Positions 19,890 to 25,136 of a stretch of 27,880 nucleotides of DNA are shown piece after piece. Position numbers and translations under genes: made by a program. The notes under the pieces were generated by a model that saw nothing but the letters and a program-made list of their open reading frames with translations, searched no databases and was not told where the DNA came from. The stretch is from an uncultured Candidatus Bathyarchaeia archaeon. Lineage in GTDB: Archaea; Thermoproteota; Bathyarchaeia; Bathyarchaeales; Bathycorpusculaceae. The first letter of the stretch is position 1; each line of letters starts with the position of its first letter. The stretch covers positions 1 to 27,880 of the forward strand of contig CAZHZB010000002.1 of the NCBI GenBank assembly GCA_964537045.1. The letters are read 5' to 3'.

Positions 19890-20855
19890 CTACTCCAAGA
19901 CCTCTATCGAGTCAACTTTTCCGTCGCCGTCTAGATCGAATCCTTGAATGACCTTGGCGAAGGTTTCATCCCCGTGGTAGTTTTTCAGGGTTCTACTCCA
20001 GAAATTGGTCAGAGCCAGCACACAAGCTTTTGTGCCTACAGCCTTGTTCCCTGCGAGCACGATGATCCGTTTGTTGCTGTCCCAAGGGTTGACGATCTTC
20101 GCCACTAACCCCATATTGTCTGCCGTGTACACAGCTGAAGTTCTTTTGGAAACTAGTCCCCCGAATAGAAAACCTTCGTTTGAAGAATGCATGTCAAACC
20201 TGATCGGTAAGTGTTCGTTTACTTCCTGTGTCAACAGGTTAGTGCCAGGACCGCCGACGAGTATTAGATTGTTCTTCTCTTCTTTTTCTGCTTTGACGTC
20301 GACGTCGAGTTTTATCGCAAACTCGTCAGGCATTCGAACAAACTGACCCAGGAAGAAGGCTAGATGAGAGGCGTAGTGGCCGTCTCTGGCGCTTGTTTTG
20401 AATGGCCCGTGGGGTGTTGGGCTGCCTACGACTATTTTTCCATCAAAAGTGTCGTCTTCTTTGATTAGTTCTCTGAAAAAAGTGTGTACTTTGTCTTCCA
20501 TACTCAAGAGTGAGAGCTTTTTTATCGGTCTGTATCCTTGTGGAAGATCAATTCCAAAAGCCGATGAGGCGGCTCTGAAGTATTTTGCAGTGGCACCTTT
20601 TTTCACTTCTTCTCTCGTTACCACTATTGCGCCTGCCTTCTCGAGTTTTCTTATGTGATAGTAGACTTTCTGTTCGTGAATGTGCAGAACCTTTGCAATT
20701 TCAAGAGGATACATTTCTTTTTCAGAAAGCATCCGCAGAATCTTCCAACTCAGTTTGTTGAATATCAGTTTCAGCCGCTGCGGATCCTCCACTAACATGA
20801 TTTCCTTGACTTTCTGGGTTTTTCCATCATCCTTTAAGAGCAGTTTCTTGTCCAA
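19890..20855 (-). CDS. ArsR-like HTH regulator with C-terminal putative ligand domain (NLILVGGP..N) and terminal DxDxDG motif
   Basis: N-terminal WKIL..LSEKEMYPLEIAK.L..HEQKVYYHIRKLEKAG.I. C-terminal IVVGSPTPHGP...ARDGHYA, NLILVGGPGTN, GFDLDGDGKVDSIE. Confidence 0.8.
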   Translation of the reverse strand: MDKKLLLKDDGKTQKVKEIMLVEDPQRLKLIFNKLSWKILRMLSEKEMYPLEIAKVLHIHEQKVYYHIRKLEKAGAIVVTREEVKKGATAKYFRAASSAFGIDLPQGYRPIKKLSLLSMEDKVHTFFRELIKEDDTFDGKIVVGSPTPHGPFKTSARDGHYASHLAFFLGQFVRMPDEFAIKLDVDVKAEKEEKNNLILVGGPGTNLLTQEVNEHLPIRFDMHSSNEGFLFGGLVSKRTSAVYTADNMGLVAKIVNPWDSNKRIIVLAGNKAVGTKACVLALTNFWSRTLKNYHGDETFAKVIQGFDLDGDGKVDSIEVLE

Positions 20856-20906: not shown

Positions 20907-21072
20907 TATTAATGCCCAAGAAAAATCATGAAGAAAAATCGTTTATCGATGTTGCCATTTGAATAATAGATCTAAGATTTCTGTTAGAACTCAGGTTTAA
21001 GTATTAACAATGCTTATTACCGAAAAACTGTTTCCATGGGACTTACTGCAACGAGAAATTGAGGCACTCTTG

Positions 21073-22902
21073 ATGTGTGGAATATTCGGCTGCATCCTGG
21101 AAGAAAAGAACGCTGCTCCGATCATACATGCAGCGCTGAAAAGACTTGAATATCGAGGCTACGATTCCGTTGGAGAAGCCACGCTACACGAAGGAAAACT
21201 CCACGTAAAAAAGGATCAGGGAAAAATCGACGATGTCCATAGACTGCGCAACCTAGATGACCTCCCTGGAAGCATCGGTATCGGACACACAAGATGGGCA
21301 ACGCACGGCGCCCCCCTCCAAGTGAATTCACATCCCCACACTGACTGCAACGAACAAATAGCAGTTGTCCACAACGGAATCATTGAGAATTTTGATGAAC
21401 TGCGCACCGATCTTGAGAATCACGGTCACACTTTCAAATCCAAGACGGATACGGAAGTTGTACCTCATCTTATCGAAGAGATTCTGAGAAACAATCCTTC
21501 TCTTGGTTTGACTGGCGCCGTTGCCGAGGCTGTGAAGAAGCTCCAAGGATCCTACGCCATCGCTGTCATCTCGTCAGAGGAACCAGACAAGATAGTCTGT
21601 GTTCGAAACGAAAGCCCGCTTGTCATCGGAGTCAACGAAAAAGACGTTTTCTTCTCTTCAGATATTCCAGCCTTTCTTCCCCTGACTAACAAAGTATTGA
21701 TAGTTGAAGATGGCGAAATCGTGACAATTTCGCTGGGAAAAGCTGAGATTAGGAAAATAGCGGACTCAAGAATTGTCTCACGAGAACCTAAAGCCGTTGA
21801 TTGGAGCCCAGAAATGGCAGTCAAGCAAGGCTACCCGCATTTCATGATAAAAGAAATTCACGAACAACCTGACTGCCTGCGCAACACTCTCAGGGTTCAA
21901 GAGCACTATGCAGATCTCATGTCAACTTTCTTAGATCGTGCTCGAGACGTTTACATGGTAGCTTGCGGGACATCTTATCACGCGTGTTTAGCGGCATCAT
22001 ATATGTTCTCAAAACTCGCTTTTCTACCCACTTACCCAATAATAGCATCCGAATTCGTAGAACAATGCGGAAAATCAGTCAACATCGACAGCACCATCCT
22101 TGCAGTGAGCCAATCGGGAGAAACCGCAGACACTCTAGCCTCCGTCAGCACTGCACGCGAGCGAGCAGCCACAATTCTGGGATTGACCAACGCAATTGGC
22201 TCAACTTTGACAAGGGTTTCGAGAGTCTACATCGGCCAGCAGTCTGGACCAGAAATAGGTGTTGCAGCAACGAAAACCTTCACTTCGCAGCTTTCGGTAA
22301 TGGCCCAACTGGCATTGAGGCTCGCAAAGAAACGCGGCAAGGTTTCACAGGATGAGATGGACTACCTCGCTGAAAAAATGAAAAAACTTCCAGACATAGT
22401 CCAAGAAATTATCCTCAAACAAGAGGAAAAGACGAAGCAAATGGCTAGGAAGTACAAGGACGCAAAAGCTTTCTTCTTCCTTGGCAGAGGCATAAATACT
22501 GCGACGGCATATGAGGGCAGACTCAAGCTGATGGAAATCGCCTATATACCTGCCATAGCCTTTCCTGCAGGAGAGAGTAAGCACGGGCCGATCAGCCTTG
22601 TAGAACCAGGTTTTCCAGTGGTTTTCGTATGTGCAAAAGATGGAACTCACAAAACGCTGATTGGAAACATAATGGAAATGAAGGCTAGAGGTGCTTCAAT
22701 AATCGCCATTGTGGAAGAAGGAGATGAAGAGATCAAGAAACTGGCGGACGACTACATTGAAGTGCCGAAAGACATCCCGGAAGTTCTGTCACCCGTACCG
22801 TTCGTCGTCCCATTACAGATGCTGGCATACTACATGGCCGTGGAGAGAGGCCTCAACCCAGACAGACCCAGAAATCTAGCCAAATCAGTAACGGTCAAAT
22901 AG
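21073..22902 (+). CDS. glmS: Glutamine--fructose-6-phosphate transaminase (isomerizing)
   Basis: N-terminal nucleophile MCGIFG, RLEYRGYDS, GHTRWATHG, HNGIIEN, SQSGETADT, VAATKTF, KHGP, DRPRNLAKSVTV. GAGG RBS before ATG 21073. Confidence 0.97.
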   Translation: MCGIFGCILEEKNAAPIIHAALKRLEYRGYDSVGEATLHEGKLHVKKDQGKIDDVHRLRNLDDLPGSIGIGHTRWATHGAPLQVNSHPHTDCNEQIAVVHNGIIENFDELRTDLENHGHTFKSKTDTEVVPHLIEEILRNNPSLGLTGAVAEAVKKLQGSYAIAVISSEEPDKIVCVRNESPLVIGVNEKDVFFSSDIPAFLPLTNKVLIVEDGEIVTISLGKAEIRKIADSRIVSREPKAVDWSPEMAVKQGYPHFMIKEIHEQPDCLRNTLRVQEHYADLMSTFLDRARDVYMVACGTSYHACLAASYMFSKLAFLPTYPIIASEFVEQCGKSVNIDSTILAVSQSGETADTLASVSTARERAATILGLTNAIGSTLTRVSRVYIGQQSGPEIGVAATKTFTSQLSVMAQLALRLAKKRGKVSQDEMDYLAEKMKKLPDIVQEIILKQEEKTKQMARKYKDAKAFFFLGRGINTATAYEGRLKLMEIAYIPAIAFPAGESKHGPISLVEPGFPVVFVCAKDGTHKTLIGNIMEMKARGASIIAIVEEGDEEIKKLADDYIEVPKDIPEVLSPVPFVVPLQMLAYYMAVERGLNPDRPRNLAKSVTVK

Positions 22903-22928
22903 ACAAAACAAGCGTAACAGAGCGCTTC

Positions 22929-23186
22929 CTATCGGCGCCTCCCACCAAAAGCCATTCCTTGCCTCAGCGTCCCAGTCACATTGTTCTTGAGCTCTTCAAA
23001 ACAAACGCTCAGACGCTCAGCGTCTTCCTTTGACATACCGGCAATCATGAGTTGTCTCTCGAAAGCTCTTCTTGCTTTTCGCACTCGCCTGCCTAGAGTG
23101 AGATACGTGTACAATAGACTCAGGGACGCGCGAGCAAGGTAAGGAGATCCTTTGATCAGATCGGCAACCGTTGACGCTGCACTCAA
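22929..23186 (-). CDS. Hypothetical protein (85 aa; hydrophobic helix + basic patch + shared helical motif)
   Basis: ORF 11 nt downstream of the previous gene's stop. Shares an ungapped motif with 23198-23545. Confidence 0.7.
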   Translation of the reverse strand: MSAASTVADLIKGSPYLARASLSLLYTYLTLGRRVRKARRAFERQLMIAGMSKEDAERLSVCFEELKNNVTGTLRQGMAFGGRRR

Positions 23187-23197
23187 TGCTGATCATC

Positions 23198-23545
23198 TCA
23201 CAATTCCTGTTCCATTTTTTCACGGACTTTTCTTTTGACTTCTTCGACGACATCTCCGCTTCTTTCGGAAGATATTCTGCTGCCTCTCATCATATCACCA
23301 ATGTTTGTGAAAGTTCGCATATAGTCTTCGGTCAACTTCACGGCTACTTGTTCAGGCAACCCCCCTGCTTTTAGTTCCTTGTAGTACGCTGCTGCAGCTT
23401 TACCCATGTTCTTTCCAGCCTCTTCGGAAAAGACCGTGGAGAGCAGGTTCTTTATTAGTCCTGGAACCTCTTCTGAAACCACTTTCAGTATTTCTTTGAC
23501 GTCCTCCGGCCTTTCCCTCTCGTGTTTCTTTTCTTCGTCAACCAT
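23198..23545 (-). CDS. Hypothetical helical protein (115 aa)
   Basis: Strong RBS GGAGGTGA. Motif GKAAAAYYKELKAGGLPEQVAVKLTEDY. Confidence 0.8.
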   Translation of the reverse strand: MVDEEKKHERERPEDVKEILKVVSEEVPGLIKNLLSTVFSEEAGKNMGKAAAAYYKELKAGGLPEQVAVKLTEDYMRTFTNIGDMMRGSRISSERSGDVVEEVKRKVREKMEQEL

Positions 23546-23566
23546 TCATTTCACCTCCATATCTAT

Positions 23567-23761
23567 CTACAATAGGTTCAGATTGAACCGCGATCGTGCC
23601 CAAGCGACTTCTGGACTTGCCTGTGCTTTTGCGATTCGAGCACGCTCTATCATTTGGACAGTAACTATGACTACTGGCTTAGTTGATCTTGAACTCAGTT
23701 CTACTACAGGAGCAAGTATATCATTGCCTGTACTTGTGTTTTTTACGTGTCCATATTTCAT
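23567..23761 (-). CDS. Small hypothetical protein (64 aa)
   Basis: ATG 23761 preceded by GGAGG. Fills the gap between the wHTH gene and the 115-aa gene in the same orientation. Confidence 0.5.
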   Translation of the reverse strand: MKYGHVKNTSTGNDILAPVVELSSRSTKPVVIVTVQMIERARIAKAQASPEVAWARSRFNLNLL

Positions 23762-23831
23762 GTTTTTCCACGCCTCCAAACAGACATAGGAGTGGTCACT
23801 GCAGTTAGGTATTCTGTGCAAAAATGACCAG

Positions 23832-24278
23832 TCACTGACCATTCTTCTCGACAAGCTCATACGTTGGAACTCTCCCTTCTGTCTTCAACAAAATACCTTT
23901 CGCCAACAATTGTTTCACTCTTTCTCTTATTATCCGTCTGCTTGATTTCCCTCTCATTTGAGCCACTTGCCGTGTTATTGCAGAAACGTTCAGCGGACCC
24001 TTGACAGCCAATGCTTGCACAATACATCTTGAAATGTCATCTTGAGCGATTGGTTTTTGACGGAGATAGCTCTCCGCGTTTTTCAGACGCGAAGCGAGCT
24101 TAAGCGGTTCACCGTACATGCCTATGCCCATTTTCGTCAACCGCAAGGAAGTTGCCAATCCCTGATACTCTGGTTTTTCAAGAATCAACTCTTCTAGAAG
24201 ATCGAGTCGCCGAATTATCTGGTCCAACTTCTTGCATAGCTCCTCTGTACTCGAACCAGAATTCTGTTCGTTACTCAA
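23832..24278 (-). CDS. Coiled-coil + winged-HTH putative transcription regulator (148 aa)
   Basis: N-terminal [21 protein letters not shown] coiled coil. C-terminal [18 protein letters not shown]...[16 protein letters not shown]....YEL wHTH. TTG 24278 with GGAAGAGG, and TTTAAAT box about 50 nt upstream. Confidence 0.75.
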
Positions 24279-24458
24279 ACCTCTTCCGACTTCCTGCTCA
24301 GTTGCTTTAGATTGAAGCTTCAGATTTAAATGGTTGACTACAGCTGATTCTGCCCTTGAAAATAGAGACCGCGAAACAGCTCCGAGTGATTCTAGGTTCA
24401 ATTCCTAAATTCAAATGCGTTAATAACCAGTAACCATTGTTTATCTTCGGTGCATCTC

Positions 24459-25136
24459 GTGGAAGCAAACGAATGGGAAAAACTGGTCCAAAACCTAGTA
24501 AAAGAAGGCATCCTTCGTTCTCCAAAGGTCATCGAAACGATGCGCAAAGTTCCCCGCGAGAAATTCCTACCGGAAAACATGCGATCATACGGCGCGGTCG
24601 ATACACCTCTTCCAATAGGTTTTTCACAGACGGCTTCCGCACCGCACATGGTCTCAATAATGAATGAAGCCCTGCAACTCGAGGTCGGCCACAAAGTGCT
24701 GGAAGTAGGCGCGGGTTCAGGGTGGCACGCTGCCACGATAGCTGAGTTGGTGGCACCTAGGACGGCACCGCGAAGCGAGTGGGGACACGTTTACACAATA
24801 GAGATTGTGCAGGGCTTGGCTGATTTTGCCAGAAAAAACATCATGAACAATGGTTACGGTGACAGAGCTTCGATAATTCATGGAGATGGTTCAATGGGCT
24901 TTCCCGAGAGAGCTCCTTACGATCGAATCCTCGCGACTGCTGCGGCACCGAGTGTTCCTAAACCACTCGTTGAACAATTGAAACCGGGAGGAACTATGTT
25001 GATTCCGGTTGGCAGCCTATCGCTGTTCCAAAACCTGATCAAGTTGACTAAGGGCAGTGATGGCAAGACAAAAGAAGAGAATCTGGGCGGAGTGGCCTTT
25101 GTCCCGTTGACCGGGAAATATGGCCACCAGTTCTGA
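24459..25136 (+). CDS. pcm: Protein-L-isoaspartate O-methyltransferase
   Basis: VPREKFLP, QTASAPHMV, VLEVGAGSGWHAA, HGDGSMG..APYDRI..AAA, QLKPGG...PVG, VAFVPL. Start could be 24450. Confidence 0.95.
   Translation: MEANEWEKLVQNLVKEGILRSPKVIETMRKVPREKFLPENMRSYGAVDTPLPIGFSQTASAPHMVSIMNEALQLEVGHKVLEVGAGSGWHAATIAELVAPRTAPRSEWGHVYTIEIVQGLADFARKNIMNNGYGDRASIIHGDGSMGFPERAPYDRILATAAAPSVPKPLVEQLKPGGTMLIPVGSLSLFQNLIKLTKGSDGKTKEENLGGVAFVPLTGKYGHQF

Follow-up and report, generated by a model that had tools for sequence, protein, structure and literature searches.

Which of four small, co-oriented genes of no known family belong together in a bathyarchaeal genome, and what might they do? The question arises in a stretch of 27,880 nucleotides (nt) from an uncultured Candidatus Bathyarchaeia archaeon (assembly GCA_964537045.1, contig CAZHZB010000002.1), referred to here as the window, in which the open reading frames (ORFs) O1 to O4 follow one another on the minus strand. 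An initial annotation, made from the letters alone, had read them as one four-gene unit behind a single TATA box. Comparison with homologous loci redraws this unit: what is conserved is O1, which encodes a winged helix-turn-helix (wHTH) protein, a control element, and the small paralogues O3 and O4, i.e., three genes and not four. This module is real, undescribed and widely conserved in archaea; no description of it was found in the literature or in the family libraries searched. The features of the locus are:

23832..24278, minus strand: O1, 148 amino acids (aa), TTG start; N-terminal helical, coiled-coil-like domain and C-terminal wHTH
23567..23761, minus strand: O2, a 64-aa ORF between the control element and O3; lineage-specific
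23198..23545, minus strand: O3, 115 aa, acidic, four-helix; the family core is a helix-GGxP-helix hairpin
22929..23186, minus strand: O4, 85 aa, basic paralogue of O3, TTG start; N-terminal hydrophobic/amphipathic helix, RRVRKARR, helical hairpin
24324..24330, minus strand: TATA box of O1 (TTTAAAT), part of a conserved AGTCAACCATTTAAA(C/T) box about 50 nt upstream of the O1 start
23793..23841, minus strand: conserved control element, boxes 1 to 3 and core; 88 distinct copies aligned
23762..23792, minus strand: remainder of the element on its downstream side, with a CTCCTATGTCTG box (consensus CCTATAWTG) ahead of the GGAGG ribosome-binding site (RBS) of the next gene; conserved alignment columns 58-90
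22910..22927, minus strand: terminator-like hairpin and T-rich tail directly past the O4 stop codon; a pattern match from a consensus scan

The genes have many homologues. Searching a 5.8-billion-protein collection with O3 returned 834 of them, all "hypothetical" and, where named, mostly from Candidatus Bathyarchaeia, and a protein search with O4 returned 56. An exhaustive HMMER search in 1.8 billion proteins (E up to 0.001) put the O3 family at 285 clusters at 50% identity, with the wider family core VSE..P.L...LYS.EAG...GKAVG.FYKEL...G.P.E.A..M...Y; a further profile-based homologue search gave close Bathyarchaeia sequences only. A scan of GTDB species genomes yielded 136 matches, and the 80 loci listed among them were nearly all labelled Bathyarchaeia or Bathyarchaeota. 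The 720-aa protein P0324 (L088:5001-7163; loci bear L numbers throughout), which has five O3 matches, was set aside as a CLIPPER-repeat surface protein and a false positive of the single-sequence search.

To count linkage, profiles were iterated over the ORFs of 87 loci and the window (88 sources). O3 and O4 were adjacent and in the same order in 88 of 88 sources, and of the 86 with sequence upstream of the pair, 82 had an O1 homologue there in the same orientation. The flanking genes of the window recur in only about one quarter of the loci and the rest have unrelated neighbours, therefore the linkage of O1, O3 and O4 is not residual synteny. Over 22 distinct loci, ratios of nonsynonymous to synonymous substitution (dN/dS, Nei-Gojobori) of 0.09 for O1, 0.14 for O3 and 0.18 for O4 show purifying selection; together with the homologues this establishes that the three ORFs are not chance. 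Distant archaeal-type contigs carry O1-O3-O4 as well (L100, L102, L107, L109, L112, L115), L089 has the order O3-O4-O1-ABC-2, and altogether the adjacency is kept in three gene orders and several distant lineages. Some genomes hold two O3-O4 copies with the element each, namely L025/L031 in the metagenome-assembled genome (MAG) CAWIRG01 and L070/L086 in MAG CAYLSJ01. The module is inherited vertically with the genome across an archaeal class and is neither patchy nor mobile. None of the outcomes that the initial annotation had named as refuting it arose: the genes are linked in other genomes, homologues are numerous, and no characterised operon was matched.

The control element, which the initial annotation had not noticed, spans about 50 nt between O1 and O2 and starts within the last codons of O1, running from 23841 to 23793. 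Box 1 (TGGTCA, 23841-23836) is followed by a 5-nt spacer that contains the TGA stop of O1, box 2 (TGGTCA, 23830-23825) by the near-invariant core ATTTTTGCACAGAATACCTAACTGCAG, and box 3 reads (G)TGACCA (23798-23793). The consensus of the alignment is TGACCA-N5/6-TGGTCAC-TTTTGCNCAGAACACCTAACT-NNN-GTGACCA, then the CCTATAWTG box, GAGGTGA and the next start codon; in general terms, hexamers of the form TGRYCA are laid out as box 1, N5/6, box 2, about 26 nt and box 3, before a CCTAT-type box, a Shine-Dalgarno (SD) sequence and a start codon. The element is present at essentially every related locus, and the copy described is the sole one within the window. In many genomes the TGA stop of O1 falls inside box 1; in the high-GC distant archaeal loci L100, L102, L107 and L109 the boxes persist inside the coding tail of O1, and distant archaeal loci with an O1 only 37-41% identical keep the layout with TGGCCA boxes, again within the O1 coding tail. 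The element is conserved as DNA whether it is coding or not.

It also recurs before other genes. Extra copies precede MFS_1 transporter genes in L033, L042 and L064, loci with an inserted methyltransferase gene carry the element twice, ahead of this gene and again ahead of O3, and in L089 the element lies upstream of O3 as first gene of the cluster. O3-O4 copies without an adjacent O1 still have it: at L031 the second O3-O4 copy has the element and no neighbouring O1, and the same MAG encodes O1 elsewhere (L025), which fits a trans-acting factor. In this behaviour, the element fits a DNA operator or promoter for such a factor, with O1 as the obvious candidate. The boxes stand about one helical turn from one another, a distance usual for dimeric wHTH proteins. 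A TGRYCA-N5/6-TGRYCA...TGRYCA operator was not met in the literature search, which was aimed at the locus and not at the motif.

The methyltransferase is a class-I S-adenosylmethionine (SAM)-dependent enzyme (about 172-180 aa, Methyltransf_31/11) that travels with the module in one subclade. Its gene lies between O1 and O3, at the position of O2, in nine loci (L036, L046-L048, L051, L052, L057, L061, L068) and after O4 in L041, L045, L055, L056 and L065. In the former position the gene comes with a variant copy of the element, TGCCCA...CAGAAGCCACAAATT...GTGACCA.

O2 is not part of the conserved core, and here the four-gene unit of the initial annotation does not hold. Recognisable homologues occur in 22 distinct loci, their ends (MKYGY... 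and ...RLHLNLG) being conserved and the middle highly variable; other loci have unrelated-looking ORFs of 60-89 aa with a similar C-terminal helix at this position, and in about 25 loci O2 is absent, with only 6-90 nt between O1 and O3. In the closest relatives, L005 and L006 (95% O3 identity, same flanks), O2 ends after codon 10, owing to a deletion of about 160 nt (L005:3965-4091 and L006:2231-2357 compared with 23546..23831 of the window) that leaves O3 125 nt from O1. With a dN/dS of 0.54 O2 is weakly constrained, and one frame is open in 26 of 35 distinct long spacers, only moderately above chance. A small ORF that evolves fast and can be dispensed with, O2 is nevertheless probably translated.

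O3 and O4 are paralogous helical hairpins of opposite charge that are always adjacent. The initial annotation had pointed to a motif common to the two, and this reflects real homology, as profile iteration from either protein recruits the other and hhalign of the separate alignments gives E 2.5e-4 over 48 columns (O3 42-89 vs O4 30-77). The AlphaFold (AF2) model of O3 (predicted local distance difference test, pLDDT, 80; core 98) consists of four helices, two of which (H41-60 and H65-88) form a hairpin around a GGLP loop; in that of O4 (pLDDT 83), an AGMS loop joins helix 15-48 to helix 53-83. Net charge is -3 for O3 (family median -5) and +9 for O4 (median +8.5). Foldseek searches with both models against the PDB gave no match better than E 0.9, and the weak recurring ones (N-terminal helices of EF-Ts, dimerisation helices of P5C-reductase) were rejected as generic helical hairpins. 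A PDB sequence search with O3 found nothing, and 61 diverse O3 relatives gave sub-threshold noise only against Pfam.

A membrane anchor had been proposed for O4. Its hydrophobic helix and the RRVRKARR stretch are present, and the basic stretch is conserved among orthologues; the helix itself is weak in this copy, scoring 0.82 on the Kyte-Doolittle scale (19-residue window, transmembrane threshold 1.6). Values of at least 1.6 are reached in 21 of 82 orthologues, and the distant orthologues in L071, L083, L089, L112 and L115 have clear transmembrane-like helices at 2.3-2.5.

The wHTH assigned to O1 in the initial annotation is borne out by profile comparison, and what stands of the coiled coil is a helical, coiled-coil-like N-terminal half. 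A profile of 55 O1 homologues matched the wHTH of the archaeal Lrp/AsnC-type proteins PH0140 and PH1519 with E 5e-5, over residues 74-138 only, and the DNA-binding domain also aligns with the wHTH of PF0864. These matches appeared after profile building only, the single-sequence PDB search giving none for O1, and none of the Pfam HTH models reached its threshold. Distant O1 orthologues showed weak matches to BlaI, ArsR/SmtB and MarR-type HTH families, all below the family thresholds. Two features are its own: a conserved MRGKASRR insertion within the HTH, and the highly conserved N-terminal half (about 75 aa), which matches nothing in the profile search.

Upstream of O1, the TTTAAAT of the initial annotation is there, at 24330..24324 and thus 2 nt from where it had been placed, within a AGTCAACCATTTAAAC box (24315..24345) that is conserved upstream of O1 in many relatives. 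This box is conserved well beyond the TATA hexamer and resembles box 2 of the element with its following T-run (GGTCAC-TTTTTGC), a likeness which hints that the two may be promoter sites of the BRE/TATA type that differ in strength. With its likeness to the GTCA-ACCA-TTTAAA layout of O1, the T-run that follows box 2 may be a weak TATA box, or equally an archaeal terminator. That one TATA box serves all four genes is not established, as the small genes are separated from O1 by a second, strongly conserved regulatory element, which in other genomes stands alone ahead of other genes.

Other details of the initial annotation stood. The four ORFs are co-oriented on the minus strand, with spacers of exactly 70 (O1-O2), 21 (O2-O3) and 11 nt (O3-O4). 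The RBSs it called clear are so ahead of O2 and O3 (GGAGG type), with a weaker GAGATGA ahead of the TTG start of O4. The mechanical O1 ORF extends to 24401, and the alignment of 55 homologues begins at the shorter TTG start (24278) that had been chosen. The four proteins matched no catalytic or other family and gave sub-threshold noise only against Pfam, NCBIfam and PADLOC; the best PADLOC match for the four (E 0.027) is spurious. The consensus scan that flagged the hairpin past O4 found two terminator-like sites, where about 1.3 are expected by chance.

The four-ORF block is flanked by GlmS (21010..22902, plus strand) and a protein-isoaspartate methyltransferase (PCMT; 24450..25136, plus strand). 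The PCMT gene is intact in the window (228 aa), and in many related MAGs its homologues are split into two overlapping ORFs in different frames (L001-L004, L010, L013, L015-L019, L021, L037, L038; for example 2455-2961 and 2951-3163 in L002). This was seen in assemblies from different projects and in one complete chromosome. Possible explanations are a true split, programmed frameshifting and an assembly error that recurs. Beyond GlmS, a 321-aa protein (19890..20855, minus strand) with HTH_20 and a weak S_layer_C match is followed by a DUF371 gene, an arrangement that is conserved in the closest relatives (homologues in L001-L021).

The locus is present in sediment metatranscriptome assemblies. 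One RNA contig (23361-23928) covers O3, O2, the element and the 3' end of O1, and the depths of the RNA contigs are comparable to or above those of adjacent genes. RNA contig ends at 23771-23776 were rejected as transcription starts, being adjacent contig breaks, and a scan for bacterial-type sigma-70 promoters was discarded as not relevant to an archaeon. Protein P0178 and a metatranscriptome contig (run X26, depth 24.5) join window position 23417 to 24314 with a 16-nt piece between, starting just upstream of the O1 start and skipping O1, O2 and the first approximately 40 codons of O3; a naturally occurring deletion or a chimeric assembly would account for this join.

Wider contexts, from 21 metagenome loci and several look-ups, revealed relatives of the pair on bacterial-type contigs. 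In every informative case (L091, L093, L094, L098, L099, L101, L103, L105, L106, L113, L116/L117) an extracytoplasmic function (ECF) sigma factor (Sigma70_r2/r4; TIGR02937 above cut-off), a zf-HC2 anti-sigma factor, an O3-like and an O4-like gene follow one another in this order, with ABC-2 transporters nearby in L116/L117. The window holds no sigma factor; a sigma factor encoded with its anti-sigma factor occurs only with these bacterial relatives of O3 and O4.

We consider it an even bet (a rough probability of 0.5) that the module is a dedicated regulator controlling a membrane-proximal pair of small proteins, which acts as output or modulator of a stress response. O1 would dimerise through its N-terminal helices and bind the TGRYCA boxes, and would thereby control the promoter (or read-through) that drives O3-O4 and, in other genomes, exporter and methyltransferase genes. 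The acidic O3 and the basic O4 are predicted to pair through their hairpins, and the N-terminal helix of O4, transmembrane in many lineages, may hold the complex at the cytoplasmic face of the membrane. In a stress response of the envelope or xenobiotic type, the pair would serve as conserved output or as feedback modulator. The dedicated regulator to which this response is wired may differ between lineages, being a winged-helix protein in archaea and a sigma/anti-sigma pair in bacteria. The general idea of a self-regulated small-protein system, put forward in the initial annotation, is thus partly supported, with the unit redrawn as O1, operator and O3/O4.

Several points weigh against this reading. 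The binding of O1 to DNA, the pairing of O3 with O4 and the function are all inferred, and the stress/efflux theme derives from the genes that surround the module in a few loci. The homology between O3 and O4 is modest (hhalign probability 43%), the matches of the bacterial O4-like proteins are weak (E 1e-4 to 2e-3), the O4 helix in the window falls below the transmembrane threshold, and the taxonomy of the contigs outside Bathyarchaeia is read from gene content only. The T-run after box 2 could be a terminator. The RNA contigs are unstranded and may contain DNA, so they show presence and not transcript boundaries, and the element lies within RNA assemblies and may therefore have a role at the RNA level.

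The main rival makes O3 and O4 part of the switch itself. O4 would tether O3 or O1 at the membrane and release it upon envelope perturbation, as in anti-sigma or partner-switching systems, and in bacteria O3 and O4 would act as helpers of the zf-HC2 anti-sigma factor, a part that YxlD plays towards YxlC for SigY. The pair is indeed always encoded with a dedicated regulator, at +2/+3 after sigma and anti-sigma factor in bacteria; the N-terminal domain of O1 has no assigned ligand; O4 is transmembrane in many lineages; and the ECF31 factor SigY, for which YxlC and YxlD are needed, offers a precedent for ECF control that requires further small proteins, encoded at +1/+2 (PMC7826278). However, such a switch would require two unrelated partner types, the N-terminal domain of O1 and the zf-HC2 anti-sigma factor, and profile comparison found no relationship between these two, nor of O3 or O4 to either. 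Moreover, the same element precedes transporter and methyltransferase genes, which look like outputs. Because two unrelated types of regulator accompany the same pair, we favour O3/O4 as output or feedback modulator over a dedicated partner of the regulator, and regard the switch as possible and as the lesser choice. More tentative still is the proposal that O3/O4 are a previously unrecognised pair of small proteins, present in both Archaea and Bacteria, which would monitor the condition of membrane or envelope and signal to the dedicated regulator of each lineage, a coiled-coil winged-helix protein in archaea or a zf-HC2 anti-sigma/ECF sigma pair in bacteria.

That the element acts as RNA, i.e., as a cis-regulatory leader, an intercistronic structure or a protein-binding site on the mRNA instead of a DNA operator, is improbable. 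It does contain two mutually exclusive inverted repeats (box 1/box 2 and box 2/box 3), each about 90% pairable, is covered by RNA contigs that are continuous with O1 and O3, and lies directly upstream of the SD. Yet neither hairpin shows covariation or compensatory change in 88 sequences, and the central pairs are broken in 17-26 of 88; compared with shuffled columns, helix 1 pairs no better and helix 2 only marginally better. The middle bases of the hexamers (TG-RY-CA) vary independently among the boxes, box 2 is a direct and not an inverted repeat of box 1 in distant clades, and the element also stands upstream of first genes. Rfam gave no match on the locus (best E 0.3, below gathering). 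Both candidate hairpins were therefore rejected for want of covariation, and this, together with the recurrence of the element before MFS and methyltransferase genes and before O3-O4 copies without an adjacent O1, argues for a role at the DNA level.

Less likely again is that O1 and O3/O4 are unrelated neighbours, with O3/O4 as housekeeping genes and the element as the O1 terminator plus a constitutive promoter. The T-run after box 2 does resemble an archaeal termination signal, and the closest relatives are broadly syntenic, but the adjacency survives complete turnover of the flanks, three repeated hexamers at fixed spacing are atypical of a plain terminator or promoter, and copies of the element stand before other genes too.

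An atypical toxin-antitoxin or defence module, which the initial annotation had entertained and in which O1 would be the DNA-binding antitoxin or regulator and O3/O4 toxic, is very unlikely: small genes do lie beside an HTH gene, and the basic, partly hydrophobic O4 superficially resembles membrane-active toxins, but vertical inheritance under strong purifying selection (dN/dS 0.09-0.18), the lack of any PADLOC, Pfam or NCBIfam match, the ECF sigma operons of the bacterial relatives and the existence of O3-O4 copies without an adjacent O1 all speak against it.

Bathyarchaeia are abundant uncultured archaea of sediments and wetlands, and next to nothing is known about how they regulate their genes. 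O1 and the TGRYCA three-box element are a candidate regulator-operator pair that is directly testable with recombinant protein and 60-bp DNA, and the element gives a way to read out the regulon by genome scanning. The O3/O4 family, which numbers no fewer than 285 clusters at 50% identity and is not annotated in any of the libraries searched, is tied to dedicated regulators in both domains. Were its role worked out in a bacterium that can be cultured and has the ECF version, many "hypothetical" genes would gain an annotation, and the rewiring of a shared stress output from one type of control to the other, sigma factor or winged helix, may come to light. If the tentative sensing role were true, the pair would constitute a new class of signalling adaptor common to Archaea and Bacteria, and O1 with its three-box operator a new archaeal regulator family.

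Among known systems, the Lrp/AsnC proteins (feast/famine regulatory proteins, FFRPs) have a winged helix with which that of O1 aligns, as seen in PH0140, PH1519 and PF0864. Their wHTH is N-terminal, whereas that of O1 is C-terminal and preceded by a helical domain, and with the match confined to residues 74-138, O1 lacks the C-terminal RAM effector/oligomerisation domain that defines the family. The efflux repressors of the MarR/PadR/ArsR type are likewise small wHTH regulators, and the element precedes major facilitator superfamily (MFS) genes in three loci and adjoins ABC-2 in L089. In contrast to these repressors, no ligand- or metal-binding motif was identified in O1, and the invariant partner within the module is the O3/O4 pair and not a pump.

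The Psp system (PspF with PspA, PspB and PspC) follows a similar logic, in which a transcription factor has small, partly membrane-anchored helical proteins as output, and these answer to envelope stress and feed back on the regulator. The layout of O4, an N-terminal hydrophobic helix followed by a basic stretch and cytoplasmic helices, recalls PspB. The likeness is architectural only: O1 is not an enhancer-binding protein, Pfam and NCBIfam gave no match to the PspA/IM30 domain or the PspB and PspC families, and Foldseek of the O3 and O4 models found nothing below E 0.9.

Finally, the SigY operon of B. subtilis (ECF31: sigY-yxlC-yxlD-yxlE-yxlFG) likewise encodes a dedicated regulator together with small helical or membrane proteins, two or three of them, and control of SigY needs the additional small proteins YxlC and YxlD (PMC7826278). 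O3 and O4 showed no sequence relationship to YxlC, YxlD or YxlE and no NCBIfam or Pfam matches; the window is archaeal, with a winged-helix regulator and no sigma factor, and the anti-sigma factor of the bacterial relatives is of the zf-HC2 type. The parallel lies in the arrangement, as an ABC-2 type transporter accompanies the module in some loci (L089, L116/L117) as it does sigY, and the bacterial relatives of O3 and O4 sit at +2/+3 of an ECF sigma/anti-sigma pair.

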